A stretch of DNA of 59,216 bases from an uncultured Ignavibacteriaceae bacterium (GCA_964645575.1 CAZYAM010000003.1:9064-68279); one strand, 5' to 3'. Shown: positions 20,553-42,255, numbered from the stretch's first letter. Numbers and translations are program-made. Notes: a model not told the origin generated them from the letters alone.

Positions 20553-20577
20553 GATGCAGAAAATGGAAATAAGATTC
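20553..20577 (-). promoter_or_regulatory. ECF-sigma-like promoter GAATC-N16-CATC (for peroxiredoxin)
   Basis: Reverse complement GAATC ttatttccattttctg CATC; same spacing as the two copies at 17.5 kb. Confidence 0.5.
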
Positions 20578-20608
20578 TACCAAATATATGCAACTTTTTA
20601 TGAAATCC

Positions 20609-21004: not shown

Positions 21005-21162
21005 CGGTTTACAACTATTCAGTTCAATTTAAAATTACTTTAAATGTCAATTGCTTCGCTGGCTTTTATACTGTTTTTTGGATTCAGTAATTATTTTAAT
21101 TCCTTTTTTCATACCTTCTTCGCAACGCAGTTTTTTCTGCTTGTTGCAAATATGATCATTTT

Positions 21163-22298: not shown

Positions 22299-22677
22299 TT
22301 AAAAATTGCGGTTATGTTCATTTGCACATGCTTTGTAGCCGCTTGACTTTCCTTGAATAAAAAGATTCAACGCTTCCTCATAAAGAAGCCCGGGGGCAGT
22401 AATAACAGTAATGCCGTATTCAGCGAACTTAGCGATTGCCTTTTGTCCCATTCCTCCGGCGATGATTGTGTTGATATTAAATTTCTGCACATAACCGGGT
22501 ATCTCGCATGCACCGCTATGCTGGCCTGCTAATGGATTATCATGACTTTCTTTCTTCACCCACTTTATTTTGTTCATCTAGCTCACATACGTTAAATTTG
22601 GAACACCTGCCGAAGTGCTCGGCCACTTTTTCATGGGCTCCGTGTACTTCAATTGCTACTGCTAATCTGTGGTTCAT
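22299..22677 (-). pseudogene. NifB/NifX-like (COG1433) protein split by a +1 frameshift
   Basis: ATG 22677 reads MNHRLAVAIE..VAEHFGRCSKF; one extra G in the run at 22559-22561; the second half has IIAGGMGQKA. Span is 379 nt (3n+1). Confidence 0.85.
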
Positions 22678-23206: not shown

Positions 23207-23401
23207 TTAATTTCCCGATCTTCTTCCTTGTCCTTTGCGGAGGCCGCCGCCGCGAGGTTTCCCGCCGCGTCCGACTCCCTGGATTTCCTTTTGCTCGCCG
23301 GTCTGTTTTGTTGTTTGCGATTGAGAATTTCGGCACCGGCCTCTCCTCCCACCTGTCATCGGCCCTTGTCCCTTCGGACCGGTTCTATCTAAATTAGGCA
23401 T
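23207..23401 (-). CDS. DUF5320-like Gly/Arg-rich small protein
   Basis: AGGAGG RBS; MPNLDRTGPKGQGPMTGGRRGRC. Confidence 0.85.
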   Translation of the reverse strand: MPNLDRTGPKGQGPMTGGRRGRCRNSQSQTTKQTGEQKEIQGVGRGGKPRGGGLRKGQGRRSGN

Positions 23402-23410
23402 AACGACCTC

Positions 23411-24232
23411 CTATGATTGTTTGTTGAGTTGTGTTGTGATAAAATCGACAATAACCTTACATGCTTTAGATGCTTCAGAATCCGGTTTCTCTAAAATAAA
23501 TGGAGTACCATTATCACTGAGAGGACAGATATCTGTGTCTATGGGAATTGAGCCGAGAAATTGAATATTCATATCTTTTGCTAATTTCTTGCCCCCGTCT
23601 TTTCCAAAAAGGCTGATCTCTTTTCTGCAATGAGGACAAAGCAGCGTGGACATGTTTTCAACAACACCGATAGATGGAATATTTAGTTGTTTTGCCATGT
23701 TAACGGCACGTTCTGCATCGATGACAGAAACTTGCTGCGGAGTTGTAACAATGACAGCATAGTCGGGTTTCATTTGCTGGGCTATCGAGAGTATTTCATC
23801 TCCCGTGCCGGGAGGAAGATCTGCAATCAGATAGTCAAGCTCTTCCCATACAACATCGGCTAAGAATTGATTGATGACTTTTGAACGCATAGGCCCTCGC
23901 CAGATAAGCGGCTGTCCTTTCTTAAGAAGACCTGCCATCGAAATCATCTTTACGCCACCTTTTTCAAAGGGAATCATTTGATCGTTCAACATGATCGGAT
24001 CATCGTTCACACCAAGCATCTTAGGCACATTAGGACCTGTTACATCTGCATCGAGAATTCCTGTCGAGAATCCTTTCAATTTAAATCCGTAAGCAAGATT
24101 GACGGCTACGGTCGTTTTCCCGACACCGCCTTTACCGCTGAAAACAGCAACTCGATGTTTTATCTTTGAGATAGTCTCTGAAATTCGTTTCTTTTCTTCT
24201 TCGAATGCTTTTTGTTTTTCTTGTTCGTTCAT
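23411..24232 (-). CDS. mrp: Mrp/NBP35 (ApbC) Fe-S carrier ATPase
   Basis: SGKGGVGKTT, LDADVTGP, WRGP, DLPPGTGD, VTTPQ, ENMS and CPHC motifs. Confidence 0.95.
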   Translation of the reverse strand: MNEQEKQKAFEEEKKRISETISKIKHRVAVFSGKGGVGKTTVAVNLAYGFKLKGFSTGILDADVTGPNVPKMLGVNDDPIMLNDQMIPFEKGGVKMISMAGLLKKGQPLIWRGPMRSKVINQFLADVVWEELDYLIADLPPGTGDEILSIAQQMKPDYAVIVTTPQQVSVIDAERAVNMAKQLNIPSIGVVENMSTLLCPHCRKEISLFGKDGGKKLAKDMNIQFLGSIPIDTDICPLSDNGTPFILEKPDSEASKACKVIVDFITTQLNKQS

Positions 24233-24234
24233 TA

Positions 24235-25578
24235 TTATACCGTTTTAAACCATTTAACAATTGCGTTGATTGTTGCGTTGATTACCGGATAGGCAATTGG
24301 AGACGGTGTAAGCAAGGGATGCGTTCCTATCTGTAGTGTATTAATATCGGTGTCCGTCATTCTGTTCAAGATCATTACTGAAATCATGTTAATCAGTTCT
24401 CCCACCGAATCCCCGCCGTATATTTGTGCTCCCAGCAGTGTATGCGAGTACGTGGAAAAAATTAATTTAACATAAACTTCAGAAACCCCCTGAAGTTTGC
24501 CAGGGTGCCTGTCAACTGCCTTGGATATTCCGACAGTATATTCCAATCCTTTTTCTTTAGCACGTTTTTCCGTCATGCCGCTGACAGCAAAAGCGGTCTT
24601 CCCGATTTTTGTTGAAAATGTTCCCAGCACACCTTGATATTGTCTGATGACTCTGATAGAATAGAGATTTGAACCGACAAGTCTTCCTTCAGCCATAGCT
24701 GTTGAGGCGAGCATTATGTTTGAGAGATCGCCTGTGAAGAAATCGTATTTTATAGCACAATCGCCGATGGCAAAAACATCTTTTTCTGATGTTCGCAAAT
24801 AGTCGTCAACAGGCACCCCTTTTCCTTCTTGATATGGAATACCTATTTTCTTTACAAGTTCAAGATTCGGCTTATATCCTACAGAAATGACAACGAGATC
24901 GCACTCTATTCTTGAACCGTCGTCAAGTTCCACACCGCCGACAGAAGTCTCGCCTAATATTCTTTTAATCTTTTTTCCCGTTACGACAGTTCCACCTTGT
25001 CCGATGAGTATTTCTTTAACTTTTTCTCCGAATTCTTGATCCATGGTCGGTAACAGTTGAGGCATCATTTCAACGAGAGTGGTGTTCTTTTTCGCTTTTA
25101 CTAATTCGTCTGCGACTTCAACGCCAATGTAACCGCCGCCGACAATAACGATTTTTTGGGCTTTATGAACTGCTGTACGAAAACGTTCCAGATATTCTCT
25201 TTCTTTATGTACAAGATAGACCCCGTCTTTATTGTTTCCTTCAATATTGGGAAGCATGGCGACAGAACCGGTGGCTAATACAAGCTTTTCATAGTGGATT
25301 TCTTCACCGTTGGAAAGAACTATGGTATGATCTTTTCTATCAACAGCCTCGCCATTGATGATATCGATTTTATTTGTTGTCAATGGCACATCCGGTAAAA
25401 TATTTTCATCGACACCGTTTAAGGAGAACAAAACATAAGGTATTCCGCATGGAATCATCGGTTTCATGTCTTTGCGAATTAACGCGACATTTTTACTTGG
25501 ATAAGAATTTTTGGCAGATAACGCCGCAGATACTCCGGCAGGACCTCCGCCAATAATTACGACATCATATTGTTTCAT
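24235..25578 (-). CDS. FAD-dependent pyridine nucleotide-disulfide oxidoreductase (NADH oxidase / CoA-disulfide reductase family)
   Basis: GGGPAG, redox Cys in IPCGIPY, GGGYIGVE, AIGDC. Confidence 0.9.
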   Translation of the reverse strand: MKQYDVVIIGGGPAGVSAALSAKNSYPSKNVALIRKDMKPMIPCGIPYVLFSLNGVDENILPDVPLTTNKIDIINGEAVDRKDHTIVLSNGEEIHYEKLVLATGSVAMLPNIEGNNKDGVYLVHKEREYLERFRTAVHKAQKIVIVGGGYIGVEVADELVKAKKNTTLVEMMPQLLPTMDQEFGEKVKEILIGQGGTVVTGKKIKRILGETSVGGVELDDGSRIECDLVVISVGYKPNLELVKKIGIPYQEGKGVPVDDYLRTSEKDVFAIGDCAIKYDFFTGDLSNIMLASTAMAEGRLVGSNLYSIRVIRQYQGVLGTFSTKIGKTAFAVSGMTEKRAKEKGLEYTVGISKAVDRHPGKLQGVSEVYVKLIFSTYSHTLLGAQIYGGDSVGELINMISVMILNRMTDTDINTLQIGTHPLLTPSPIAYPVINATINAIVKWFKTV

Positions 25579-26450
25579 TATGGCACCTTTATTATTTGGT
25601 TAGACAATAGAACTCCGTATCCCAACGGATAACCGGAGCGCTCAGCGATAACTTCGCATTTAACTTTAAAAAGAAAATAGATCAGCCTCGTTTCATTCAT
25701 TAATGTTTCGAGATTTCCCTGGCCTTTTGCAATGACAATGTCGGCCTTCTTGTAAAGTTCAAGAAATTCCGGAGTACATTGCCGTAGATCGGTTCCGGCA
25801 ATCATACTTCCGCTTTCTACAACATTGCATATTTTATCTATACCGATCCGCTTTGCATCTTCAAGTGTTATGTCATTGAGAATCGGTTTCGACCGTACCG
25901 CGAAAATAACTTTTTTTTGCATAAGTTCAGATAGAAGAAATTTATCGAATAGTGCTTCCTCGTAGTTGTCGCCGATGTAGAGTATGATATCGGCTTTTTT
26001 TAAATCGTCTTTAAAATGGGGAAGCGAAGAGAGGTCAATAGTATTTGAAGCTATTCGATTGACTTCATATTCGATATCAAAACGATGGTTAGCGCCAAGG
26101 TCGATGATATTGCCGATGATGGCAATTCTTAGAGCAGTATCGAGCTTGTCTTTCGAGCCTTCCATCATTGTCCTAAAAAACGGGATATATTTCTCCGCTG
26201 TTTTTCTATTCTCTTCTTTTATTCTTTCGTAAGGGTTGACCACTCCCAGGTGTTTTTCAACGATGGACTGTATTGTCAAAGAGAACATCGGCGCGTTAAA
26301 ATTTCCATCAACAGCATCGACAGATTTGCAGACTTCTTTGACTATCTTAAGTTGAAGTTCCTTGTCTTCCTTATTGAAGAGCCGGGCTGCATTGTATGCT
26401 TGATTTATAATACAGGGAATACATCGTGGATCAAAAAACATGGTCTTCAC
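25578..26450 (-). CDS. DUF89/ARMT1-like metal-dependent damage-control phosphatase
   Basis: CIPC, NPYERIK, GNIIDLG, DN, NDIT and AKGQGNLE motifs. Confidence 0.88.
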   Translation of the reverse strand: MKTMFFDPRCIPCIINQAYNAARLFNKEDKELQLKIVKEVCKSVDAVDGNFNAPMFSLTIQSIVEKHLGVVNPYERIKEENRKTAEKYIPFFRTMMEGSKDKLDTALRIAIIGNIIDLGANHRFDIEYEVNRIASNTIDLSSLPHFKDDLKKADIILYIGDNYEEALFDKFLLSELMQKKVIFAVRSKPILNDITLEDAKRIGIDKICNVVESGSMIAGTDLRQCTPEFLELYKKADIVIAKGQGNLETLMNETRLIYFLFKVKCEVIAERSGYPLGYGVLLSNQIIKVP

Positions 26451-26482
26451 TTTTATTTAATTATTTACTAAAAATTGTCAGC

Positions 26483-26962
26483 CTATAATATACGTTTTCT
26501 TTTGCGCTTGCCTTTTTTAAAATGCATATCAAGCCAGCCGTTTCTTATATGATCTCTTGAATCAAAATGAGCTACATAGGGTTTGATATCTAATAACGGA
26601 GTGCCGTCAAGTATATCGACTTCTGAAAATACGATAATATTATCCTTCACCTTTTCCAATTTCACAATGGAAAATCCGATATGATTGGGCCTGTGAGGGC
26701 TTCTTATTGCAAATATCCCGTGTTCCTTATCCTCAAGGAACGGTTTCCCAACAAGTATCTCTTCTTTAGAGCGGTTAAAATGGTAAATTAAAATGAGGTG
26801 CGAAAATCCCTCAATGTCTTTAAGTCCCTCTTGATACCGTTTAAATAATTCTATCCGGCCCTTCACATGCTTTTTGAAAGTACCCTGAATAGGCATACCC
26901 TTTGGTTTTTTATAAGGCGTGTAAATTATTCCGATGGGTTTAAGATTGATTTCTTTTTTCAT
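26483..26962 (-). CDS. tsaA: TsaA/TrmO-family SAM-binding protein (tRNA m6t6A methyltransferase-like)
   Basis: LKPIGII, GIFAIRSPHRPNHIG, DILDGTPLLDIKPY. Confidence 0.9.
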   Translation of the reverse strand: MKKEINLKPIGIIYTPYKKPKGMPIQGTFKKHVKGRIELFKRYQEGLKDIEGFSHLILIYHFNRSKEEILVGKPFLEDKEHGIFAIRSPHRPNHIGFSIVKLEKVKDNIIVFSEVDILDGTPLLDIKPYVAHFDSRDHIRNGWLDMHFKKGKRKRKRIL

Positions 26963-26963
26963 A

Positions 26964-27097
26964 TCAGAAAGTAATCACTCTCTCGCTTTCTCCAATAATT
27001 TTATAAATATCTTTCATGGTCGAAATCGGGCACATCTCTAAGTTTCCTGCTCTCGTAACTTAATACAGCTTCCGCAAGCATAAATTTTGCTTTCCGC
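26964..27097 (-). pseudogene. C-terminal remnant of a DsrE/DsrF-like sulfur-relay protein
   Basis: Reads KIYACGSCIKLREQET, then a frameshift near 27040, then EMCPISTMKDIYKIIGESERVITF*; the N-terminal half is missing. Confidence 0.7.
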
Positions 27098-27129
27098 CTA
27101 AAAATCATACGGGGCGAGGCTTCCATTAA

Positions 27130-29445
27130 TCAAAATGCTGTTTCGATACCAAAAAAAAGCGTCCCGGGCCTGGCAGGACCATAGACATACGCCGGATCTC
27201 GATCGGGCCCAGTATCCAGATCGTCTTGATAAGCATTTAATATATTTTTTGCTCCAATGTTTAATTTCATATTTAATCCGTTATTCAACGGAAGTTTGTA
27301 AGTAAGACCCACATCTATTTCAAAAAATTGATCGCTCTTTTCAAGGATAAGTATGGGATTTTCCTGTCCTTCCACAACGACTTCATGGGGTAAATCAGCT
27401 TCCCCGATATAAGTGCCATTCAGATAAAGGTCGATATTGCTGCTTGCAGTCAGGGATAAAATGATATTTCCTGTCAAGTCTGGTGTTCTAAAAAAATTAT
27501 AGGTCCCGAAATCCTTATGAGGACTATCATAGCGACTTTTTTGATATGTTAAACCGCCACGAATTTCAAAACCGCTCAATGGACGAATTCCCATATCCAT
27601 TTCGATACCTGTTACCTTAGCGCCGTCACTGTTTACACGTTCCCAGCGTTCGATACTGCCTTGTTTGGAAACAAACTGCTCGGTGAAGGAATCGGTTAAT
27701 TTTGTATAAAAAGCGGTCAATGAAAACATGGTCGGAATATCATTTATATAACCCAAATATTCCAATCCACCGCTGAGTGAATGGCTGCGCTCTTCTTTTA
27801 GTTCCGCTGAATTTCGAATGACTCGTTGATCACCTTCAATGCCGCACAGATGCAAATCTTCGTCGTACGTTTGTGGTGGTTTGAATCCCGTGGTATACGC
27901 GGCTCGAAGCGTAATACCTTTGCCAATATTAAATTTCCCATTGAGACGGGGACTCACAATCCAATCTTTCAGTTCAGAGTGCTTATCGAAACGAATACCT
28001 GCCACAAATTCCAATTGCTTATCATCACCAAAATGGAAATTATCTTGAACAAAGATTCCCGTATTTTTATAGATCTCATTTATATAGTAGGCTGTTTCAG
28101 CAGCAGTTTCATCCTGCAATTTATCTTGGGAATATTGTACTCCAGATGTCAGGAGATGGTTCTGCGCTTGGTAATTAAATTGAAATCCTGCAATTTGCAT
28201 CGGATTATCTGTTTTTCCATAAAAAGCCAGCGCATCCAATGTATCCTTCGGCGTGTCGCCGCCTAAACCACCGAAATAGGATTTTCGATTTTCGAATGAA
28301 AAAGAATAAAAAAATCGATAGTCGAAAAGCGCTCCAGGTCGATGAGACCAGCGAATAGTTCCCCCCGATCGCCAGTGTTCTATCCATTCGGCGATGTCAG
28401 CTTCATGGACAGGCAGATCGAACTTGTTGCCTCCACGCCGTTCTTCATGGATTTGATGAAACGATGCTAATAATTCACTATTGATAAATGGTTGGTAATA
28501 CCATTTGAATCCGAATGTTTCATTACGCAGCTCGCCTAATTCACTAAATCCATCTTTGTTGTAGTCATAAGGATTACGCTTTCGGAACGAGCCAAATATG
28601 TAGGTGCCCGACGTCCCTTTATTATAAACATTCTCTGCAACGGCGCCAAGATGCTGATCTATTTTACCATCGGTGGAGTTGCTCTGGTATTTGATCCTTA
28701 CCTGGTTTATCATGGGCGTTCGTGTAATCATATTAATGACTCCAGCCACCGCGCCGCCGCCATAAAGCGATGATCCGCCGCCTTTTACGATTTCAATCTG
28801 ATCGACCATTTCTTCGGGAAAATGCTCGAGCCCGTACACACCGGCCAAACTACTGACGACGGGATCGCCATCAATCAAAATCTGTGAATATTTGCCATCC
28901 ATGCCCAAAATACGCACCTGTGAAAAATTACAATTTGTGCAATTATTTTCAACCCTGATTCCGGTATGAAAAGAAAGGGCTTCCGCCAAATTGCAAGCAT
29001 GTTTTTGTTCAATCAACTGCCGTGGAATGACCTCGGTTCGTACAGGCATATCTTCCATCAGATGTGGAGTTAATGTTCCCGTTACCACCATGGCTCCCAT
29101 TTCAAACATAGTCGATTCAAGTTCAAAATTAACCATCGTGTGTTCATCAGATTGAATGTCTATAATTTTTTGTTCCTGTTTGTATCCCATCACCGACGCA
29201 ACGAGATGCAATTGCCCGGGTGAGACATTGCTAATAATATACTCGCCATTTTTGTCGGTTGCGGCTCCGACGGTTGTATGTTCAACGATTACATTGACTC
29301 CTGGCAGGGGCTCTTTTGTTTTTTTATCGATCACTTTACCTTTTATCGAACCGTTACCAGGCATTGCAAATGTAACTGTAGAAGAAAATAACAAACCGAA
29401 TATTAAATATGTTTTCATAGCTTGGATTACGATTTTTATGTTCAT
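27130..29445 (-). CDS. TonB-dependent receptor with N-terminal carboxypeptidase-like domain and CxxC plug
   Basis: KEPLPGVNV, VVTGT, ENNCTNCNFSQVRILG, IEIVKGGGSSLYG, C-terminal Phe. Confidence 0.93.
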   Translation of the reverse strand: MNIKIVIQAMKTYLIFGLLFSSTVTFAMPGNGSIKGKVIDKKTKEPLPGVNVIVEHTTVGAATDKNGEYIISNVSPGQLHLVASVMGYKQEQKIIDIQSDEHTMVNFELESTMFEMGAMVVTGTLTPHLMEDMPVRTEVIPRQLIEQKHACNLAEALSFHTGIRVENNCTNCNFSQVRILGMDGKYSQILIDGDPVVSSLAGVYGLEHFPEEMVDQIEIVKGGGSSLYGGGAVAGVINMITRTPMINQVRIKYQSNSTDGKIDQHLGAVAENVYNKGTSGTYIFGSFRKRNPYDYNKDGFSELGELRNETFGFKWYYQPFINSELLASFHQIHEERRGGNKFDLPVHEADIAEWIEHWRSGGTIRWSHRPGALFDYRFFYSFSFENRKSYFGGLGGDTPKDTLDALAFYGKTDNPMQIAGFQFNYQAQNHLLTSGVQYSQDKLQDETAAETAYYINEIYKNTGIFVQDNFHFGDDKQLEFVAGIRFDKHSELKDWIVSPRLNGKFNIGKGITLRAAYTTGFKPPQTYDEDLHLCGIEGDQRVIRNSAELKEERSHSLSGGLEYLGYINDIPTMFSLTAFYTKLTDSFTEQFVSKQGSIERWERVNSDGAKVTGIEMDMGIRPLSGFEIRGGLTYQKSRYDSPHKDFGTYNFFRTPDLTGNIILSLTASSNIDLYLNGTYIGEADLPHEVVVEGQENPILILEKSDQFFEIDVGLTYKLPLNNGLNMKLNIGAKNILNAYQDDLDTGPDRDPAYVYGPARPGTLFFGIETAF

Positions 29446-29496
29446 TTATTCTGTGATATGATATGAGTATTTCTTTTTTTAGTTATCGTTTTTATC

Positions 29497-30312
29497 TTAC
29501 TTTTTTAATGATGATTTATATATTATGAACCAGCCGGCAGATCCTATAGCTATCAGCCCAAGAGATATCAACTGCGCTTCACTTAATCCAAAAGCAATCC
29601 GCGGATTGATGCGGATGAACTCTATTGTAAACCTTTCAATTCCGGCCAATATCAAATAGAACATGAATAACATTCCTGTCGGCAAAGGCTTTTTTCGGAT
29701 GGACCAAAGGAATAAAAACATTACTCCGCAAATCAGAAATTCGTACACAGGAGTCGGATGGCATGGAGTGTTATCCGGAACAATACCTCCTGGAAATTGA
29801 CTGCAGATTTCCGGAAAACCTCTGAAGGCTGCCGAAGGCGGGTATGTGCCGTTCGAATAATCAGTTCCCCAGGGAAGTGTCGTCGGGAAACCATAATCGC
29901 CGTCACCTGAAAGATGACATCCGATACGTGCAATGCCATATGCAAGAATCAAAGCAGGCGAAATTGCATCGGCCACAGTAAAGAAAGTGATTTCCTTTTT
30001 CTTTGAATAAAGATATATTGAGAACGTTGCGAGAATGAAACCGCCGTAAAATGTTAATCCGCCTGGATTAAATATCATGCCTATTGGATCCGCCGTGAAT
30101 TCGCGCCAGTATTCTAACAAGTAAAGAATTTTTGATCCTGCAATACCCGAAACCAGTGCTATTAATGTGATATTATTCGCTATATTCGGATCCAGTTTCC
30201 GGCGTTTGAATTCGCTGACGAAAAGATAACTTCCGACAATGAAACCGGTTGCAAGCATTAAACCGTAGCTATAAACTGTAAAGGGGCCGATTTGAAAGAG
30301 TCTGGGACACAT
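29497..30312 (-). CDS. lgt: Prolipoprotein diacylglyceryl transferase
   Basis: YSYGLM, GGLTFYGG, ARIGCHLSGD, HPTPVYE, RFTIEFIR. Confidence 0.92.
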   Translation of the reverse strand: MCPRLFQIGPFTVYSYGLMLATGFIVGSYLFVSEFKRRKLDPNIANNITLIALVSGIAGSKILYLLEYWREFTADPIGMIFNPGGLTFYGGFILATFSIYLYSKKKEITFFTVADAISPALILAYGIARIGCHLSGDGDYGFPTTLPWGTDYSNGTYPPSAAFRGFPEICSQFPGGIVPDNTPCHPTPVYEFLICGVMFLFLWSIRKKPLPTGMLFMFYLILAGIERFTIEFIRINPRIAFGLSEAQLISLGLIAIGSAGWFIIYKSSLKK

Positions 30313-30478
30313 AAATAATATTCCTGTTAATAAGGGGTTTTAGGTATCGACTCGAAATTGCATAAATATTTTTTGGCTTATTTGAAATTTACGAAAATAT
30401 TTAGCCGGATACAGCATGATCATTCTTATTATTTACAAAGACATTATTTGAATGAAATATCCCTATATCCATTTTTTT

Positions 30479-31580
30479 CTATGGAAGAAGGCGGTTATTT
30501 CTAAAAAATATTTTTTCTTCGGAATCGATTCTTGCGGCTAATTTTTCATCGATCATATATTTCAGCATGTCCGGATCGCCGCCTTTATTTTCAATAAATT
30601 TATTTGCCGCTTCTTCAGTCACAGGATGCACGGACATAATTCCCAAAAGTTCTTCTTCAAGTCCGCCGGCACCTTCAAAATCATTTTCTTCAGAAAAGAA
30701 TAACGTTTCTGAATCCGTGATTTTATTTTTTGTGAACTTCGAAATTTCAGAGAGTGTTGAAATACGGGGCGCCGCGACATAAGCTTCAGTGGGCGGGCGG
30801 ATTGGAATCGTGAAGTATGATTTGTTTCTCTTCAGTTTTTTAAAGTATTCGCTTAGCACTTCTAACTCACCAAGATTGTCATTTATATTCTCTACCAGCA
30901 TTGTCTCCGTGGTAAGAAAGCCACGGTAAGATTTTGAGAAGTCGATTATTCCATCGAGAATTGCATTGAATTTTAATTTTCCATGCGGCCTGTCCAGTTT
31001 TGTCCACGTTGTTTCATTTACCGTATCAACTTTTACTGATACATGATCTGCAAGTGAAAGACTTTCTTTTACATCATCGTTCCACAAAAGAGAGGAGTTT
31101 GTGAAAACTGCAATTTTGCGGCCAAATTCTCGAAGAAGTAAAATCTCTTTCGAAAGGTTAACATCAAGAGTCGGTTCGCCATTTGGAAGAATGCTGATAT
31201 AATCTATTTGAGTACGTTGTTCAGTCAATAGTTTAATCTTGTCATTAACGAGATTGAACGCTTCTTGTAGATCCAAAAACCCATCCCGTTTTATTGAACA
31301 GCGTTTAGTACGGCCGACCTGGCAGTATACGCAGTTATAAGTACATACTTTTTGATACATAGTCATTGATACCGAGGCTGTATCCCAATCTTCGTGACGG
31401 CACAGGCCCGAAAACAATGTTCCCGCGGGAAGAAGGATTTACAGGAACGCTATTCTCCGGATTAACACACATTGTATCTATAAAAGAAGGATTTGAAACA
31501 ATAGTCTTCTCAAAATTACCACGAATATTCTCTATTTTCCTTTTGAATGCAGATTTTATTCTATCGAATTGAAGAGTCAT
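30479..31580 (-). pseudogene. Radical SAM protein (COG0731/TYW1-like) split by a +1 frameshift
   Basis: FGPVPSRRLGYSLGIN in ORF 31335-31580 and KVCTYNCVYCQ in ORF 30479-31417; removing one A from the A5 run (31349-31353) restores NDYVSKVCTYNC. True start uncertain (31580 or 31472). Confidence 0.85.
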
Positions 31581-31598
31581 ATGAATATATGGGTTTTT

Positions 31599-33314: not shown

Positions 33315-33544
33315 CTGTCTATCTCAACAAAAATTTTTTTTGCCATTCCGAATCCGACAGCAACTTGCATATTGTCTATTTCTATCGTCTGTGGACCGCG
33401 CCAGAAATGAGAACTTACCTTGGTTATTCTCTTCCCGGGCCTTATTCCTATGCTTTGCAGTTTTCTTATGAAGCCGCGACCGCCCAGAATCTCTTTTACC
33501 GTGCCGGTTTCTCCCGGCTGCATTTGTGTTAAATCTGTCTTCAT
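33305..33544 (-). CDS. feoA: FeoA family protein
   Basis: RKLQSIGIRPG, GP, VAVGFGMAKKI; overlaps the feoB start. Confidence 0.92.
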   Translation of the reverse strand: MKTDLTQMQPGETGTVKEILGGRGFIRKLQSIGIRPGKRITKVSSHFWRGPQTIEIDNMQVAVGFGMAKKIFVEIDRCK

Positions 33545-33546
33545 TT

Positions 33547-33756
33547 TCAAAAACAGGTAGGACATGTTCCTGTAGAGCAGCTTGGTCCAGAAGAAGAACT
33601 GTCTCCAGAACCTCCAACGCTAAATGTTGAAAATATTCTTTCGATATTTTCACTGTTGCATTTTTCGCATTTAAGCTCTTGTTTTTCTGAAGTTACCCCT
33701 ATCAACAAATCGAATTTCTCACCACAATCTTTACAAATATATGTATACATAGGCAT
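33547..33756 (-). CDS. FmdB-family zinc ribbon protein
   Basis: MPMYTYICKDCG...CEKCNS...RIFS plus a Cys-rich tail CSTGTCPTC. Confidence 0.9.
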   Translation of the reverse strand: MPMYTYICKDCGEKFDLLIGVTSEKQELKCEKCNSENIERIFSTFSVGGSGDSSSSGPSCSTGTCPTCF

Positions 33757-33795
33757 GATTATCATCTCCTGTTTATGTTCTAAAAATTAACTTAA

Positions 33796-34110
33796 CTAAA
33801 CATGTTGCTTGATCGTAGTTTCCAGTTCGGATTTAGGAAGCGCACCTACAACCTTGTCCACGACTTTATCATCTTTAAAAATTGCTAAAGTTGGAATACC
33901 CATTATTCCATAACGAGATGCGGTATTAGGAGCTTCATCTACATTTAACTTATATACTTTCAATTTACCTTTATATTCCTCGGCGATTTGCTTGATTATC
34001 GGCGCCACCATAAGGCAAGGGGCGCACCACTCTGCCCAAAAGTCTACCAAAACAGGTAAATCCGATTCTAAAACCTCTTGTTTAAAATTATTATCATTTA
34101 CATTAATCAT
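33796..34110 (-). CDS. trxA: Thioredoxin
   Basis: [18 protein letters not shown]. Confidence 0.93.
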
Positions 34111-34120
34111 ATCTTTGTTT

Positions 34121-34765
34121 TTATATCTCTGCGATTACTGTGATGCCTGCCTTTACTTTATCACCTGTTTTAACTTTTAAGTGTAAATAATTAGGTAAAG
34201 AGAGATCAACCTGTGAACCCAATTTAATCATCCCTATCCGCTGTCCCTGAATAACTTTATCACCGACATTAACCCAGCATACTATCCTTCTTGCAAGAAT
34301 CCCTGCAATCTGCTTGATTTCGAAGACTCCATCCATCGTTAATATTCTGATTACATTCTGTTCATTCTCAATTTCTGCCTGCTTAAAAAATGCCGGTAAA
34401 AATTTCCCCGTTTTATATTCTATTACCTCTACCGAACCCGGGAACGGCGCTCTTTGAACATGCATGTCTAATGGCGACATAAAAATCTGTATAATCTGCC
34501 TCTTGTTATCTTTTTTGATTTCAATAATTTTTCCATCAGCAGGCGAGAGAACGTGGTTATCGTTGATTAATATTTTCCTTTCAGGGTCGCGGTAGAAATA
34601 CAGAGTGAACAGAGACAGTATTAAAAGCACCCAGGCAAGAAGATTAAAGACTAAATAAAGCCACCCAAACAGAAAGCAAGATATTATATAACAGAAGAGA
34701 GCAAGGAACAAGCAGATACCCGCTGTTAGCACTCCTTCTTTAACTATTGGCAATTTCATATTCAT
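34121..34765 (-). CDS. psd: Phosphatidylserine decarboxylase proenzyme
   Basis: [24 protein letters not shown] and the self-cleavage motif KLGS. Confidence 0.92.
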
Positions 34766-34843
34766 AATTGTTAAAGAAAAATATTCACTAAACGATGATT
34801 CAATTCAATCTTAAATATATACATGAACCTTTATAAGCAACTT

Positions 34844-35149
34844 TTACTTAGTATTATCAGCTTCGCTTAAAATTTGGTTCAGTTTATCAGCATGAATGAA
34901 ATCTATGACTTTCATATCAATTTCTTTTATACCTTTTATCTGTGTAATTGCATTTCTAATATCAAAGGCAAGCCGAAAACCTAATGGACAAGTCGGCATG
35001 GATGGTCTAAATATCAGGATTACTCCGTTATTTTCGATTATTTCTAATTTTTTAATTAATCTCATGCTTAAAACATCGATGCCTGTTTCCGGATCGATAA
35101 CTTTGCTCAATTTATCCTGTATTATTTCTTTGAAACTAATTGAGTCCAT
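34844..35149 (-). CDS. DUF59 / SufT / PaaD-like Fe-S assembly protein
   Basis: VIDPETGIDV and PTCP motifs. Confidence 0.85.
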   Translation of the reverse strand: MDSISFKEIIQDKLSKVIDPETGIDVLSMRLIKKLEIIENNGVILIFRPSMPTCPLGFRLAFDIRNAITQIKGIKEIDMKVIDFIHADKLNQILSEADNTK

Positions 35150-36020
35150 TTTGAATAACTTCCCAGATGTTTCTAATTTGTTGCGAGACTTCTCCGTCGG
35201 AATATTCTATAACAGTTTTTTTATTTACCATTGCTTCTATTATTGCGGTATCATATTTGATTTTACCTGCCAGCGCAACTCCGTTTTTTCGACAATATCT
35301 TTCTATTTCTTCGGCCATTTCCGTATTCAGGTCGTATTTATTGACAACTACAAATGTTTTTACATTAAAATGCTGCGCTAATTCTATTACTCTTACCATA
35401 TCATGTAAACCTGATAAAGTGGGCTCTGTCACTATTAAAGCGCAGTCAATTCCTGAAATCGAGGAAATAACCGGGCAGCCTATTCCGGGAGAACCATCAA
35501 CGATAATGATGTCGCGATTTTCCTTCTCGGCTATCAGTTTTGCATTCTGTTTTACTATGGTCACTAATTTACCCGAATTTTCTTCCGCAACGCCTAATTT
35601 AGCATGAACGAAGGGGCCATATTGAGTGTCTGATATAAACCACTCGCCTGAAATACATTCTTCCATCTTTATTGCTTCTTGGGGACAAATATAACTGCAG
35701 ACTCCACAGCCTTCACAAGAAATAGGGTCAACTGTTACCGTCGATTGCTGATTGCTTATGGATGATTGAGTAATGGCGTCAAACCGGCACACTTCAAGAC
35801 ACATGCCGCATTGATTACATCTCTCGGTATCGATGACAGCGGTCTTGCCGCCTTTAAATTCATGTCTCTCCAGAATTTTTGGATTGAGTAAAAGATGCAA
35901 ATCTGCTGCATCTACATCACAATCAGCCATAACTTTGTTTTTCACTAAACTGGCAAAAGCAGCGGTAATAATCGTCTTGCCCGTTCCACCTTTTCCGCTT
36001 ATAACTACAATCTGTTTCAT
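35136..36020 (-). CDS. MinD-superfamily P-loop ATPase with inserted 2x[4Fe-4S] ferredoxin (COG1149), copy 1
   Basis: SGKGGTGKT, DCDVDAADL, CNQCGMC..C and CEGCGVC..CP, ENSGKLV, DGSPGIGCP. Confidence 0.93.
   Translation of the reverse strand: MKQIVVISGKGGTGKTIITAAFASLVKNKVMADCDVDAADLHLLLNPKILERHEFKGGKTAVIDTERCNQCGMCLEVCRFDAITQSSISNQQSTVTVDPISCEGCGVCSYICPQEAIKMEECISGEWFISDTQYGPFVHAKLGVAEENSGKLVTIVKQNAKLIAEKENRDIIIVDGSPGIGCPVISSISGIDCALIVTEPTLSGLHDMVRVIELAQHFNVKTFVVVNKYDLNTEMAEEIERYCRKNGVALAGKIKYDTAIIEAMVNKKTVIEYSDGEVSQQIRNIWEVIQNGLN
35741..35770 (-). repeat. Degenerate heptamer repeat forming an in-frame insertion (about SSISNQQ) in the ferredoxin loop
   Basis: Minus strand actcaat-catccat-aagcaat-cagcaat-cgacggt. 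Confidence 0.5.
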
Positions 36021-36394
36021 GAACCTCTCTTCAATAAATAATCGGCCAGCGCCTTGTGTAAAGTGGTCACTGCCAAAATTGCGCAATGAACATTAGAACC
36101 TAAAAAATCGTGCAGTTTATCTATAACATCTGCCGGAGATAATTTTAAGGCATTGTTTATAGTTTGTCCTTTCACCATTTCAGTTGCAATTGATCCGCAT
36201 GCTGTTGTGATTCTGCATCCGTCGGTATAGAACAAAACCTCGGAAATTTTTCCATCAGTTATTTTTATGTGCATCTCCATAGTATCACCACATTGGCCTT
36301 TCACCAGAGCGGCACCGTCCGGCTTGGCTATTTTTCCGAAATTCTTCGGCTGGGAAAAATGTTCAACTATTTTCTCTGAAGATATTTTTTTCAT
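36017..36394 (-). CDS. NifU N-terminal / IscU-like Fe-S scaffold, copy 2
   Basis: HFSQPKNFG, CGD, DGC and HCA motifs. Confidence 0.88.
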   Translation of the reverse strand: MKKISSEKIVEHFSQPKNFGKIAKPDGAALVKGQCGDTMEMHIKITDGKISEVLFYTDGCRITTACGSIATEMVKGQTINNALKLSPADVIDKLHDFLGSNVHCAILAVTTLHKALADYLLKRGS

Positions 36395-36433
36395 GTTTTT
36401 CTATTGTTTAATTCTTTGCGCTTATAATTCTTT

Positions 36434-37354
36434 TTATGATTTGAATTTTTTAATATCGTTAAATAACCGTACAAATTTCGTTTTAAATTCAGGAATAAAT
36501 TCAACCATAGGAATTCCTTTTGAATAAGATTCGGCTATTTTTCTGTCAAAAGGTATTCTCATTAAAACCGGAATATTTTCTTTATTGCAGTACTTATCAA
36601 CCTCTTGATACCCTGCCTGCCCTGATGCTGTCGGAATATCTGTTCGGTTTATTACCACACCAAAAGCAATGTTCAATTTTCTAATAACTTCTACTGCGAG
36701 AATGAGATCGTTCATGCCAAACGGAGTGGGTTCGGTTACGAGAATACAATAATCGCTGCCTTTGATGGACCCGATTACCGGGCAGGATGTGCCGGGTGGA
36801 GCATCGATGATGACCACTTTATTGTTTGTAATATTTTTCTTAACTGCTTTAATAAGGGGCGGCGACATCGCTTCACCGATATTTAACTTTCCACCAACAA
36901 ACTCGATTTTTCCAACTCTGCCGATTTGAATATTTCCTATTTCCCGGCCTACTTCCTCAATTGCTTTCTCGGGACAGAGTAAACTACAGCCGCCGCAGCT
37001 GTGACAGAGTTCAGGAAAAATTAAAACCTTTCCGCCGGATGCGGATCCCTGCTCGTCCGTCGGGCGAGTGTTTTGGTTGAAATTTCTTATCACAGCAATA
37101 GCGTTGTAAGCACACACTTCCTGACATTTACCACAGTAGGTGCATCTCTCTTCGATTACTTTAGGTACGGGAATGCTTATTGGTAGAGTTTTTGTAATAT
37201 TCGGTTTTAAGAAGATATGCGCGTTTGGCTCTTCTACATCGCAGTCAACAATCTGTATCGCACCTATATCGGCGGATGACAAGGAAAGGGCTAAATTTAC
37301 CGCTATGGTAGTTTTTCCCGTTCCACCTTTTCCACTGGCAATTGATATAATCAT
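36434..37354 (-). CDS. MinD-superfamily P-loop ATPase with inserted ferredoxin (COG1149), copy 2
   Basis: SGKGGTGKTT, DCDVEEPNAH, two ferredoxin Cys motifs, DAPPGTSCP, TEPTPFG. Confidence 0.93.
   Translation of the reverse strand: MIISIASGKGGTGKTTIAVNLALSLSSADIGAIQIVDCDVEEPNAHIFLKPNITKTLPISIPVPKVIEERCTYCGKCQEVCAYNAIAVIRNFNQNTRPTDEQGSASGGKVLIFPELCHSCGGCSLLCPEKAIEEVGREIGNIQIGRVGKIEFVGGKLNIGEAMSPPLIKAVKKNITNNKVVIIDAPPGTSCPVIGSIKGSDYCILVTEPTPFGMNDLILAVEVIRKLNIAFGVVINRTDIPTASGQAGYQEVDKYCNKENIPVLMRIPFDRKIAESYSKGIPMVEFIPEFKTKFVRLFNDIKKFKS
36614..36634 (-). repeat. 21-nt REP-like in-frame insertion encoding PTASGQA
   Basis: CCGACAGCATCAGGGCAGGCA inside NRTDI[...]GYQEV; shares GGCAGGCAGG with the intergenic hairpin at 37534. 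Confidence 0.6.
37031..37068. repeat. Two stacked REP-like hairpins inserted in frame (..TRPTDEQGSASGG..)
   Basis: TCCGC-cggat-GCGGA and CTCGTCC-gtc-GGGCGAG inside the ferredoxin loop of ATPase copy 2. Confidence 0.6.
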
Positions 37355-37533
37355 TTTTCTTGTTTATTCTTGACAGCAAACATTTCGAGAGATTTATAAA
37401 AAATATTTTCGTTTGAACATATATCATCTGTTCAGGCACTATGAAAACGATATTAAAAAGAATCTCAGGTCATTCCTATCGGATTATTTCGAAATCGATA
37501 TATATATTATACCGCAATATGCACGATAAATTG

Positions 37534-37563
37534 CCCGCCTGCCAGAGCGAAACGGCAGGCAGG
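37534..37563. repeat. Intergenic REP-like hairpin
   Basis: CCCGCCTGCC-agagcgaaac-GGCAGGCAGG, 9 of 10 pairs. Confidence 0.65.
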
Positions 37564-37601
37564 AGTTCAGCATGATAAAAATCCTATTTTTGAGATAGGT
37601 C

Positions 37602-38126
37602 TTAGTTGCTATCATTATATTGATAATCGAGTCTTTTTAAAGCTAATGCTTCGTTTGGACAAGTATTGACACAAACGCCGCAGCCAGAACATTTTTCTGA
37701 ATCGATTTTTGCTGTGTAATTTAACGTGATTGCCCCTTGATCGCAAACATCAATGCATGTTCCGCAGCCCGTGCATTTATTTTCATCGATAAAAGCTTTA
37801 ACAGATACTTTTTCCCCGGTTATATTTTGTTTCCCCTTGCTTATGCTCAATTCATCGATCCTGTTAAGGATTGAGTCTATATGATGCTGAAGTGTTTGAG
37901 CTTGTTGTTTCAACATATCCAATTCTTGATCTTCTGGAATAGGTTGTTGTGGATCTTGCAGTGATTGTGGCTGAACTGTAGATGGTGTCCAACTCTCGGA
38001 CAACTGCCTTTGTACCATCCCCTGTCCCGTTCCACGGCCCATACCTCTTGCAAATCTACGATTTCTACCTCTTCCTGTTCCCGGACCATTGCCCCATAAT
38101 GGTCCTTTTCCATTACCACCCGGCAT
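37602..38126 (-). CDS. DUF5320-like N-terminus + coiled coil + 2x[4Fe-4S] ferredoxin fusion
   Basis: AGGAGG RBS; MPGGNGKGPLWGNGPGTGRGR; CTGCGTCIDVC and CSGCGVCVNTCP. Confidence 0.88.
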   Translation of the reverse strand: MPGGNGKGPLWGNGPGTGRGRNRRFARGMGRGTGQGMVQRQLSESWTPSTVQPQSLQDPQQPIPEDQELDMLKQQAQTLQHHIDSILNRIDELSISKGKQNITGEKVSVKAFIDENKCTGCGTCIDVCDQGAITLNYTAKIDSEKCSGCGVCVNTCPNEALALKRLDYQYNDSN

Positions 38127-38127
38127 T

Positions 38128-38379
38128 TTAATTACCTCCTTGTTGATTATCATTCTTACTGTTAAGGGCTTTTTTCTCGTCTTGTTTCTTTGAAGAAAAG
38201 AGTTTTACAATTGAAGCGAGCAATGTAACAGCACTTCCTATCAATGCTATTACACCTTGTGATTTGTTTTCATTCTCGGATATTGAATCCTTTTTTACAG
38301 TACTGTCAAATTGTTGACGCCTGTATCCTGTCCCTGGCCCGCTGCCCCATGGGGGCCCTTTTCCATCTCTATCTGGCAT
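38128..38379 (-). CDS. Small protein with DUF5320-like N-terminal motif and a hydrophobic helix
   Basis: MPDRDGKGPPWGSGPGTG; VIALIGSAVTLLASIVKLF. Confidence 0.75.
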   Translation of the reverse strand: MPDRDGKGPPWGSGPGTGYRRQQFDSTVKKDSISENENKSQGVIALIGSAVTLLASIVKLFSSKKQDEKKALNSKNDNQQGGN

Positions 38380-38477
38380 TTAATACCTACTTTTCTTAAA
38401 GTTACCTACTTAAAAAGTTATTATCCTTTTATCAGAATCATGTCTTCAGGATTTGGCCACCTGCTTTAATTGTACTT

Positions 38478-38843
38478 TTAAGACATGCCAAATTTTGAAT
38501 TTGTGCTTGGGCCTTGAGTTGGTTTAAACTCGCCTTTTTTGTATTTTTCTACCGCTTCCTTAACACTGCCGGATATGCCGCTTATTATTTCGATGCCTGC
38601 TTGTTGAAGTGATTGAAAAGCATTTGGTCCTACGTTTCCACTCAGAACTGCTTTGACTTGCTTGTTTGCCATGAGCTGACCAGCCTGAACACCCGCTCCG
38701 CCTGTAGCATCAATACTTGGATTATTAATCGCTTCAAATTTCATCGTCTCGGTATCGACGACAATGAAATAATTACACCTTCCAAACCGTGGGTCAACTT
38801 GCGAATCCAGATTGTTATTCTGTGCCGTTACACAAATATTCAT
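38478..38843 (-). CDS. NifB/NifX-like (COG1433; MTH1175/orange protein family) protein
   Basis: VDPRFGRCNYF, GGAGVQAGQ, GNVGPNAF; GAGGAG RBS. Confidence 0.92.
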   Translation of the reverse strand: MNICVTAQNNNLDSQVDPRFGRCNYFIVVDTETMKFEAINNPSIDATGGAGVQAGQLMANKQVKAVLSGNVGPNAFQSLQQAGIEIISGISGSVKEAVEKYKKGEFKPTQGPSTNSKFGMS

Positions 38844-38859
38844 GTTATAACACTCCTCT

Positions 38860-39258
38860 TCAATGGTTATGTTCATCCGGATTAGAATGATCAGATCGGA
38901 TTTTATCTAAGCCGTATCCCTTTCCCACGCCGGGCTTACAGAGACTTTCAGCACTTTCTAAAGCATCTTTTTTAATTTTCTCTATCACTTCGTCTATTCT
39001 ACCGCTTATACCGACGATTGTTTGTATCCCATATTCATTAAAAAAACCAACGGCTCTCATCCCCATACCGCCGCAAACTATACACTCTACACATTTCTGG
39101 TGTAAAAATTTTGGTATGAGCCCAAGTTCGTGTCCCGGATTTTCGATAATCTCTTTCTTTGCAATCGTGCCGTTTTCAATGTTCACAATTGTAAAATTAG
39201 GACACCTGCCGAAATGGGCAGATACAAAATCTCCATCTGTGGATATAGCAATTCGCAT
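38860..39258 (-). CDS. NifB/NifX-like (COG1433) protein
   Basis: VSAHFGRCPNF, NPGH, CGGMG; His-containing tail. Confidence 0.92.
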   Translation of the reverse strand: MRIAISTDGDFVSAHFGRCPNFTIVNIENGTIAKKEIIENPGHELGLIPKFLHQKCVECIVCGGMGMRAVGFFNEYGIQTIVGISGRIDEVIEKIKKDALESAESLCKPGVGKGYGLDKIRSDHSNPDEHNH

Positions 39259-39331
39259 ATTCTTTTCCTTACAAGAATTAATAATTAGAGATAGGGGAGA
39301 AATCTATGTAATTTTCCCCTATCCTAAATGG

Positions 39332-39718
39332 TTATTTATCCGACCCGGCTGTTCTTTCGGTCTTCTCTAAGGTCTTGATGCGATTCAGAATACCATCAAG
39401 CTGGGTTTTTAAAGTATCAGCTTCCTGCTTGAGCATATCCATCTCCTGTTTTGGAGTCATGTTTGGAGTGTAAGGATAAGCGTCAGCAGGAAAAGCATAA
39501 TCGGTTCCTGCCCAGCCTGGGAAACCGGCAGCCCAATACCGATGTCTCCAGCCACGTCCAAACCCACCATGACCCCAGCCTCGACCAAATCCAAAGCCCA
39601 ACCCTCTGCCTGGAATTGGATTCATATAACCGGGTGCAGGATAACCCGCACAGTAGCCTGCTGCGCGACCGGTCATTGGACCAGCCCCACTTGGACCAGT
39701 TCTATCTCCTCTTGGCAT
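39332..39718 (-). CDS. DUF5320 family protein
   Basis: MPRGDRTGPSGAGPMTGRAAGYCAG, Gly/Arg/aromatic middle, C-terminal coiled coil. Confidence 0.9.
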   Translation of the reverse strand: MPRGDRTGPSGAGPMTGRAAGYCAGYPAPGYMNPIPGRGLGFGFGRGWGHGGFGRGWRHRYWAAGFPGWAGTDYAFPADAYPYTPNMTPKQEMDMLKQEADTLKTQLDGILNRIKTLEKTERTAGSDK

Positions 39719-39776: not shown

Positions 39777-40247
39777 TTATTTCTTTTGGCATTTATTGCA
39801 CAGCCCATAAAATTGAATAAGGTGATTTGTGATTTTAAAGTTAAATTTTTTAGATAATCCTTTTTCTGTTTGGCCAAGTAATTCTTTCTCTTCTTCGGCA
39901 AAATCTGTGTAATCAATAATTTTACCGCAATCTGTACACAATAAATGATGATGATGTTGTTTTCCTTGGAATCCTTCGGCTAACTCGTACCGGGCTCTTT
40001 TATCTCCGAAGTCGAATTTCAAGATAAAGCCCATTTCTACGAGCAACTCCAGTGTCCGGTATATGGTTGTTAAGCCGATGGCCGGATATGTTTTATGGAC
40101 TGCCATATATATTTCTTCAGCGCTTAAATGCTCGGTCGTTTTACTTAAGAGATCGAGGATTGCTTCTCTCGGAATAGTTAATCTATAACCATAACCCCTA
40201 AATTTTCCGTGCCACCAGCGTGATCCCATTTTCATTCCTCTTGGCAT
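39777..40247 (-). CDS. fur: Fur family transcriptional repressor
   Basis: RLTIPR, HLSAEEI, TIYRTL, HHHHLLCTDCG, C-terminal CNKC. Confidence 0.95.
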   Translation of the reverse strand: MPRGMKMGSRWWHGKFRGYGYRLTIPREAILDLLSKTTEHLSAEEIYMAVHKTYPAIGLTTIYRTLELLVEMGFILKFDFGDKRARYELAEGFQGKQHHHHLLCTDCGKIIDYTDFAEEEKELLGQTEKGLSKKFNFKITNHLIQFYGLCNKCQKK

Positions 40248-40260
40248 ATGATGCCTTATT

Positions 40261-40279
40261 GATAATGGTTATCATTATC
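40261..40279. promoter_or_regulatory. Fur box
   Basis: GATAATGGTTATCATTATC matches the classical GATAATGATAATCATTATC at 17 of 19 positions, 13 nt upstream of the fur ATG. Confidence 0.85.
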
Positions 40280-42216: not shown

Positions 42217-42255
42217 TTTTTCGTTTTCTGTTTTTCACATGTTCCGCATATTTCA

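Follow-up and report, generated by a model that had tools for sequence, protein, structure and literature searches.

A conserved N-terminal signature on four DUF5320 paralogs in an iron-sulfur gene cluster of an uncultured Ignavibacteriaceae bacterium

Four small proteins, here named A, B, C and D, begin with the same conserved peptide in a 59,216-nucleotide stretch of DNA from an uncultured Ignavibacteriaceae bacterium (GCA_964645575.1, CAZYAM010000003.1:9064-68279), the whole of which is referred to below as the window. The original prediction, made from the sequence alone, took this peptide for a tag set on four different proteins and proposed that it is a docking or targeting signal. As judged by profile and motif comparison, the four proteins are paralogs of the Pfam family DUF5320 (PF17253), whose profile itself starts with the motif, and the peptide is the N-terminal signature of that family rather than a free-standing tag. 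We tentatively favour, with a confidence a little short of even, the reading that this signature is an N-terminal docking element that would fix cationic tails, similar to the tail of the Pyrococcus furiosus protein IssA, in trans to a NifX-like domain or to the complex surrounding it.

The shared peptide itself is real. The pattern MPxx(D/N)xxGPx(3-4)GPxTG starts four open reading frames (ORFs), and the N-termini quoted in the original prediction are found there on the minus strand (Table 1). A six-frame regular-expression scan of the window gave exactly four matches to the strict form MP..[DN]..GP.{3,4}GP.TG, each at an ATG, and the looser form GP.{3,4}GP.TG recovered the same four sites and none further. 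When the window was shuffled 300 times the strict pattern was never matched, and the loose pattern occurred on average 0.003 times per shuffle. The DNA encoding the motif differs among the four ORFs at third codon positions, with proline encoded by CCA, CCT or CCG and glycine by GGT, GGA or GGG, so the conservation is at the level of protein and not that of a DNA repeat; a DNA repeat or gene conversion is thereby ruled out. A secretion signal was also considered and rejected, as the translations of A to D have neither a hydrophobic core nor a twin-Arg motif.

Proteins were counted as members of PF17253 if their whole-protein hidden Markov model (HMM) score reached the gathering cut-off (27 bits), which D, B and A exceed; D and B cover the whole profile and A its first half, and C gives no match. 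The family signature MPxGDxTGPxGxGPMTGR..G.C, corresponding to profile positions 1-23, is present in all four ORFs, in B and C as a GPGTG variant with a 4-residue spacer and without Met-15 and Cys-23. A C-terminal amphipathic helix of the form QExDxLKxQAExL...RIxxLE (profile positions ~70-99) is found in D and B, and not in A or C. The near-identical helix previously noted in B and D is confirmed by a count on the translations (~17 of 29 residues identical), and the likeness arises because both proteins carry this conserved helix of the family. Protein C, which qualifies by motif and synteny alone, is a lineage-specific membrane-helix derivative. It has four relatives, all from the same lineage and all retaining the hydrophobic helix near the C-terminus; among these five sequences the motif DGKGPPWGSGPGTG is 100% conserved, compared with an overall identity of 56-73%, and the gene order around C is repeated on six independent metagenome contigs.

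The bodies behind the motif are as originally described: a basic RG tail in A, a helix and a 2x[4Fe-4S] ferredoxin in B, a hydrophobic helix in C, and a Gly/Arg/aromatic region with a helix in D. In D the motif is followed by a disordered region rich in Pro, Gly, Arg and aromatic residues and then by the C-terminal helix; AlphaFold gives a predicted local distance difference test (pLDDT) score below 50 for residues 1-88 and models the helix confidently, and AAGGAG lies upstream of the ATG. C consists of its motif variant, a polar linker and the hydrophobic helix IALIGSAVTLLASIVKLF. In B an RG/M-rich disordered region precedes the DUF5320 helix and the ferredoxin, with residues 1-63 disordered in the AlphaFold model and the helix at pLDDT 74-86. 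The start of B is the motif Met at 38126 and not 38153, as given in an ORF list: AAGGAGGT lies 7 nt upstream, and gene callers assign 183 or 174 aa to B on sister contigs. The last codons of C (QGGN-stop) form the Shine-Dalgarno sequence of B, from which it follows that C and B are translationally coupled and that B starts at 38126. Behind its motif A has a basic Arg/Gly/Lys tail and lacks a helix; the gene begins 9 nt past the stop codon of the Mrp gene, with AGGAGG upstream, and a similar protein with motif and RG tail is encoded in a Thermodesulfobacteriota locus (L089, 8166-8426).

The motif spans 17-23 residues, of which about ten positions are 99-100% conserved across bacteria and archaea; the invariant residues are Gly and Pro, and conservation is 94% at D5, 99% at T7, 74% at M15, 81% at C23 and 93% at Arg-18 within TGRG. 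The motif is located at translation starts without exception. Pro-2 is preceded by Met in 120 of 124 copies and by Val in the other 4, and a Shine-Dalgarno sequence lies upstream of 120 of 129 motif copies. Some ORFs carry two copies in tandem, and in all five of these (5/5) the internal copy stands behind a Shine-Dalgarno-like (A/G)AGGAGG(T/C)GAT placed 6-7 nt before its own ATG; the conserved "GKEV..MP" peptide of these ORFs exists because it is encoded by the ribosome-binding site. An internally functional motif in the tandem ORFs is thus ruled out, every internal copy having its own Shine-Dalgarno sequence and ATG, and long database matches turned out to be tandem forms or mis-called starts. 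An HMM aimed at the motif came out at 123 positions, full-length rows having been kept by the weighting, and matched mainly canonical members. A proline in position 2 permits cleavage of the initiator methionine by methionine aminopeptidase, and by this rule the mature proteins probably begin with Pro. The motif is predicted to be disordered, with pLDDT below 50 across it in both D and B, and a PDB sequence search with the DUF5320 family profile returned weak coiled-coil matches only (best E = 0.012), with the motif unmatched.

DUF5320 is a large family, with 5,916 clusters at 50% identity (E <= 1e-3, exhaustive search) and more than 4,500 homologs of D, and it has members in many anaerobic bacterial phyla and in archaea. 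A full-text literature search on DUF5320 recovered two passing mentions only, neither of which addresses function. We retrieved 80 genome loci with the canonical DUF5320 alignment, spanning WOR-3, Omnitrophota, Atribacterota, Bacillota, Chloroflexota, Planctomycetota, Spirochaetota, Actinomycetota, Desulfobacterota and others. Of these loci, 69 have NifX-like genes, 63 have MinD-ferredoxin genes, 42 have Mrp and 39 have Fur. The expected linkage of homologs to NifX and COG1149 genes is borne out most clearly where at least 6 kb is available on both sides, NifX being present in 28 of 30 such loci and MinD-ferredoxin likewise in 28 of 30. The canonical gene has fur directly upstream in 27 of 72 cases and is followed by a NifX-like gene in 41 of 72 and by an ATPase gene in 5 of 72. 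An independent DNA scan using the motif only (ATGCC…GGNGAY…ACNGGNCC) returned 120 loci, 93 of them with a recognisable motif ORF, and within 8 kb of these 93, archaea included, NifX was found in 59, MinD-ferredoxin in 42 and Mrp in 24. The Solidesulfovibrio locus recovered by the motif scan was considered as an orp locus, which it is not.

The modular reuse of the motif also extends beyond the window, recurring across phyla on coiled coils, Cys4 ribbons, Arg/Trp tails, ferredoxins and membrane helices, with two to five motif-bearing ORFs in 38 of the 80 loci. Five classes of body are seen: the canonical Gly/Arg/aromatic region plus helix; a protein of ~75 aa with a GPGTGRG variant, a GRG linker and a C-terminal Cys4 ribbon (23 identified by regular expression and a further 19 by clustering); a protein of ~95 aa whose tail is Arg-rich and has Trp as its last residue, always encoded directly upstream of the canonical gene; the tandem ORFs with two motif copies; and the motif with a basic RG tail, as in A. 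The GPGTG variant is shared by B and C together with a lineage-specific Trp-containing spacer, indicating that their motifs are recent paralogs set on different bodies.

A further pattern concerns proteins in which the tail and the NifX domain form a single chain. In several NifX2-type proteins (L019, L068, P0126-P0245) the NifX domain is continued by a tail rich in GMGRG and by the same helix, in some cases with a ferredoxin as well; Pfam scores such proteins as PF02579 plus PF17253, the alignment to the latter starting only at profile position 8 or 14. One NifX-tail-helix protein used as a query gave 6,825 matches; all of the best 120, which were examined, contain PF02579, and most have PF17253 with or without Fer4. 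The motif is absent from these same best 120 of 6,825 by the strict pattern (0/120) and nearly so by the loose one (4/120). The body of B corresponds to what makes up the C-terminal two thirds in the widespread NifX-DUF5320-ferredoxin fusions, and NifX2, C and B of the window look like a split version of such a protein, with the motif standing in place of the covalent link. Elsewhere the place of B is taken by stand-alone 2x[4Fe-4S] ferredoxins (L039, 10592-11029, and six similar ORFs), a number of which have disordered Arg-rich tails, and small ferredoxins of ~58 aa precede ribbon genes in L051, L064, L066 and L067, pointing to ferredoxin and tail modules that were joined and separated more than once. 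At another locus, in Solidesulfovibrio alcoholivorans (L160, 3780-4517), a NifX-like domain carries a DUF134-like N-terminus (MPRPRLRRWV...), and this fusion lies directly upstream of genes for a Cys4-ribbon protein without the motif and a canonical DUF5320, with CGGC-domain genes following.

We favour docking because the motif is strictly N-terminal, predicted to be disordered and missing from covalent NifX fusions. We infer binding of the motif to NifX or its complex, and of the tails to iron-sulfur material. As a short linear docking motif the peptide would depend on a free N-terminus, Pro-2 probably being exposed after removal of Met, and it would tether variable bodies to the NifX-like domain or to a complex built round that domain. 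The bodies so anchored would be a cationic disordered tail rich in Gly/Arg/aromatic or Gly/Arg/Met residues, an oligomerising helix, a ferredoxin in B and a membrane helix in C. Docked in trans, they could recreate the single-chain NifX-DUF5320-ferredoxin proteins and the arrangement of NifX domain and cationic tail in IssA, where the tail is proposed to hold anionic iron-sulfur species and to drive the formation of particles. The docking signal of the original prediction thus fits the position, the disorder, the loss in fusions and the tight gene linkage, and docking itself stays an interpretation of these.

Several observations weigh against this docking reading. In a related lineage (L087 and L088) D, C and B are found as a trio next to fur, NifX1/NifX2 and MinD-ferredoxin genes being absent between them, and the motif of B is there degenerate (MPCGNGRGSRWTNGSATG). 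The NifX-tail fusions coexist with stand-alone motif proteins in L019 and L068 and are hence not simple alternatives to them, and the Solidesulfovibrio ribbon-type protein has no motif. The docking partner could equally be the ATPases. The classical Fur box ahead of the operon (Table 1) suggests induction under iron limitation, which is awkward for a pure storage role.

A bolder extension of the docking model, which we regard as unlikely, is that DUF5320 proteins are trans-acting IssA-type tails of an iron-sulfur storage and trafficking body in bacteria and archaea. In such a body the Pro-motif would plug into the NifX-like domain, the cationic tail would wrap an anionic iron-sulfur polymer or clusters, and the helix would cross-link units into particles or condensates. 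Paralogs might supply electron input (the ferredoxin of B, the Cys4-ribbon proteins) or membrane attachment (C), and loading, unloading or positioning of the body might fall to the MinD and Mrp ATPases, under Fur control. If true, this would give the ORP ('orange protein') complex of Desulfovibrio a function and extend thioferrate-type storage from the Thermococcales to most anaerobic phyla.

The main rival to docking on NifX is that the motif acts instead on the MinD/ParA-like (Orp3/Orp4-type) or Mrp ATPases, by recruiting or stimulating them, an explanation that our analysis leaves doubtful, even as the best of the alternatives. The conserved Arg-18 and the strictly N-terminal, predicted disordered motif would suit an ATPase partner, and candidate partners are at hand: the 63 loci with MinD-ferredoxin genes have two such ATPases, motif genes of the ribbon class are often the immediate upstream neighbours of the first ATPase gene or of Mrp, and A directly follows Mrp in the window. 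The combination of coiled coil and disorder, and the C-terminal Trp of the Arg/Trp-tail class, also resemble McdB-type adaptors. The ATPase explanation, however, leaves the loss of the motif upon NifX fusion unexplained, and the gene that follows canonical members is NifX far more often than an ATPase. Moreover, the trio persists in L087 and L088 with no MinD-ferredoxin genes in 20 kb and only Mrp, at the locus end.

Somewhat less probable again is that the motif is a metal or iron-sulfur ligand site, in which the Pro-2 amine, Asp-5, Thr-7, Met-15 and Cys-23 would hold iron or a cluster bridging chains brought together by the helix. A requirement for a free N-terminus would explain the exclusively N-terminal position, the candidate ligand residues D5, T7, M15 and C23 are conserved to the degree given above, and all neighbours in the locus handle Fe-S. 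A small Cys-rich protein of the ORP operon is reported to bind [2Fe-2S] (Maiti 2016, as cited in PMC6345978). Yet Cys-23 and Met-15 are missing from B, C and the whole ribbon class (GPGTGRG), the invariant residues, Gly and Pro, are non-ligands, and with a single Cys in each chain thiol ligands for a cluster would be scarce.

There is also a small chance that the motif has no specific partner, the proteins being sticker-and-spacer scaffolds (Arg/aromatic/Gly) for condensates or nucleic acid, with the peptide serving stability, processing or translation initiation. RGG-like, aromatic-rich sequence of high isoelectric point (pI) with almost no acidic residues before the helix, disordered in the AlphaFold models, is what such scaffolds would have, but the near-complete conservation of about ten positions over bacteria and archaea points to a specific contact, the synonymous variation speaks against a signal at the mRNA level, and the tight operon linkage speaks against a generic role. 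Last and very improbable is the radical SAM alternative of the original prediction, a leader or recognition element of a ribosomally synthesized and post-translationally modified peptide for the radical SAM enzyme of the locus: a conserved N-terminal segment with a variable remainder recalls a leader and core, and a radical SAM gene occurs in 21 of the 80 loci, but it is far less linked than NifX and the ATPases, not adjacent and frameshifted in the window, no protease or exporter is present, and the bodies (ferredoxin, Cys4 ribbon, long helix) are folded and conserved.

Returning to the window, the genes surrounding the four DUF5320 paralogs lie on one strand in the order Fur, D, two NifX-like proteins (PF02579), C, B, a MinD/ParA ATPase with an inserted ferredoxin, an IscU-like protein, a second MinD/ParA-ferredoxin ATPase, a DUF59-type Fe-S assembly protein, PSD, thioredoxin, an FmdB zinc ribbon, FeoA and FeoB. 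These are followed by a radical SAM protein, Lgt, a TonB-dependent receptor, a TrmO-like protein, ARMT1/DUF89 and a flavoprotein resembling CoA-disulfide reductase, and the cluster ends with Mrp/NBP35, A, a PNPOx-like protein, a third NifX-like gene and a Dps-like ferritin. The Fur box has one mismatch to the 19-mer consensus, with 0.04 matches expected by chance; it is the window's sole match with three or fewer mismatches, and it lies downstream of a TTGACA-like hexamer. It is likely to be the operator of the operon that begins fur-D-NifX. A Fur box upstream of fur was found in 21 of 38 related loci, as against 1.6% of control windows.

Table 1. Positions of the DUF5320 paralogs, their parts and the principal neighbouring features in the window.
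Feature	Position (nt)	Strand	Evidence and remarks
Protein D, 128 aa, canonical DUF5320	39332..39718	-	PF17253 101 bits, profile 1-99
D, N-motif MPRGDRTGPSGAGPMTGRAAGYC	39650..39718	-	
D, C-terminal helix, residues 89-126	39341..39454	-	
Protein C, 83 aa	38128..38379	-	motif; no Pfam match
C, motif variant MPDRDGKGPPWGSGPGTG	38326..38379	-	
Protein B, 174 aa	37602..38126	-	PF17253 39.5 bits, Fer4 59 bits
B, motif MPGGNGKGPLWGNGPGTG	38073..38126	-	
B, DUF5320 helix, residues 65-99	37830..37934	-	
B, 2x[4Fe-4S] ferredoxin, residues ~108-165	37632..37805	-	
Protein A, 64 aa	23207..23401	-	PF17253 36.5 bits, profile 1-53 only
A, motif MPNLDRTGPKGQGPMTGGRRGRC	23333..23401	-	
Fur-family regulator, first operon gene	39777..40247	-	PF01475 113 bits; best NCBIfam match Fur, below cut-off
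Fur box GATAATGATAACCATTATC	40261..40279	.	14 nt upstream of fur start codon
NifX-like protein 1 (Nitro_FeMo-Co / 'Di-Nase')	38860..39258	-	PF02579 70.9 bits; directly downstream of D
NifX-like protein 2	38478..38876	-	PF02579 90.7 bits
MinD/ParA P-loop ATPase, inserted 2x[4Fe-4S] ferredoxin (Orp3/Orp4 type)	36434..37354	-	Pfam ParA/CbiA + Fer4
Second MinD/ParA-ferredoxin ATPase	35136..36086	-	Pfam; likely true start near 36020, 294 aa (gene callers)
Mrp/NBP35-type Fe-S carrier ATPase, 273 aa	23411..24232	-	PF10609 320 bits; immediately upstream of A

Two genes of the cluster are interrupted. The third NifX-like gene (22299-22677, minus strand) falls into two reading frames, MNHRLAVAIEVHGAHEKVAEHFGRCSKFNV... 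and ...KIKWVKKESHDNP...IIAGGMGQKA..., close to an A-rich stretch, and is likely a frameshift or pseudogene. The radical SAM gene (30479-31580, minus strand) is likewise split over two frames with the junction near 31365-31380: the upstream frame ends ...GPVPSRRLGYSLGINDYVSKSMYL-stop, the frame with CxxxCxxC goes on as ...KVCTYNCVYCQ, and one A fewer in CAAAAAG would restore GINDYVSKVCTYNCVYCQ, so that either an assembly error or a genuine frameshift is involved. A conserved peptide, RKIENIRGNFEKTIVSNPSFIDTMCVN, is encoded just downstream of feoB (31335-31580, minus strand), and on a related contig (L087, 13457-14029) gene calling makes a similar stretch, RKKIETICSNFGEVVGRNPSFIDTLCIN, the N-terminus of a NifX-like gene product; such stretches could represent a conserved small ORF, or a domain, with a link to FeoB.

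The flavoprotein resembling CoA-disulfide reductase (24235-25578, minus strand) is named from its best NCBIfam match, which is below the cut-off. It is encoded in the operon of 10 of the 80 loci and lies between two ATPase genes in L003, L004, L007, L040 and L056, and it recalls the CoA-dependent sulfur reductase of Pyrococcus, which is induced by sulfur together with IssA. The flanks of the cluster (19777-21774 and 41371-43011, both minus strand) encode a class I methyltransferase, a second IscU-like protein, a 1-Cys peroxiredoxin and two proteins of the metallo-beta-lactamase fold; among related loci, genes of these types were found in 18 (methyltransferase), 11 (metallo-beta-lactamase fold) and 3 (peroxiredoxin).

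Three known systems invite comparison. The first is the set of partners of ParA/MinD-family ATPases: ParB, ParG, MinE, McdB and PomX act on these ATPases through short, disordered, cationic N-terminal peptides. The window resembles these systems in having small coiled-coil or disordered proteins encoded beside ATPases of the ParA/MinD type, but there is no sequence similarity, and the ATPases of the window carry ferredoxin inserts and stand in an Fe-S context.

The second is the ORP complex of Desulfovibrio vulgaris, encoded by the operons orp5-orp4-orp3 and orp7-orp8-orp9, in which Orp3 and Orp4 are MinD-like proteins with ferredoxin motifs, Orp5 is small, Orp8 is NifX-like and Orp9 combines Mrp and Di-Nase (PMC6345978, PMC8359166); a physical complex containing the small subunit Orp5 was obtained by pull-down (PMC6345978). 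Two MinD-like ATPases with 2x[4Fe-4S], NifX-like 'Di-Nase' proteins and Mrp/NBP35 occur together in the window as well, this combination being specific to anaerobes, and small ORFs stand at the head of the ORP operons as they do in the window. From this synteny we infer that Orp7 is a DUF5320 protein and Orp5 a small protein of the motif or ribbon type. The window differs in being one long co-directional unit with a Fur box, whereas ORP consists of two divergent operons under sigma-54/OrpR, and its Mrp is not fused to Di-Nase (it has no PF02579 match), unlike the MrpORP fusion. NifX-like protein 1 is closest among NCBIfam models to the Di-Nase part of MrpORP, and the matches to MrpORP are partial ones, by NifX-like and MinD-ferredoxin proteins, among the proteins scanned, which did not include Mrp. 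A large family, DUF5320, is in this way placed in an operon of which one relative alone, that for the Desulfovibrio ORP complex, has been studied, still without a defined role for the complex.

The third comparison is with IssA (PF2025), an iron-sulfur storage protein of Pyrococcus furiosus that consists of a NifX-like domain and a disordered tail of ~70 aa with 16% Pro, 21% Gly, 10% cationic and 20% aromatic residues, one Cys and a pI of 10.7, Pro-rich at first and then rich in cationic residues, aromatics and Gly, which has been proposed to wrap anionic thioferrate (PMC5524996). In canonical DUF5320 proteins the conserved Cys-23 is followed by a middle region that is nearly equal to this tail in length, composition and pI, when set against the published composition as opposed to the sequence: on average it has 68 aa with 25% G, 10% R, 13% P, 22% W+Y+F and 2% D+E, and a pI of 10.1. 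An IssA-type tail, defined by a pI of at least 9 and at least 20% Gly (PMC5524996), is thereby present on both counts. Many bacteria, moreover, fuse NifX directly to a DUF5320 tail, and the two are joined in thousands of other proteins; in the window, by contrast, they are separate genes, and A to D have no PF02579 match and so are not IssA members. DUF5320 also adds the N-terminal motif and the C-terminal helix, neither of which has been described for IssA, and whereas IssA is tied to thioferrate storage, the system of the window is known from genes and predicted structure.

The family is thus an already known one, and what is new here is a testable docking model and the connection drawn between DUF5320, ORP and IssA. 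Should the motif bind nothing, the window would present an ordinary case of paralogs in a known family. If the docking model is correct, the signature would join the ORP complex, IssA and thioferrate storage, and the Mrp/NBP35 carriers, and would represent a new class of prokaryotic short linear motif.

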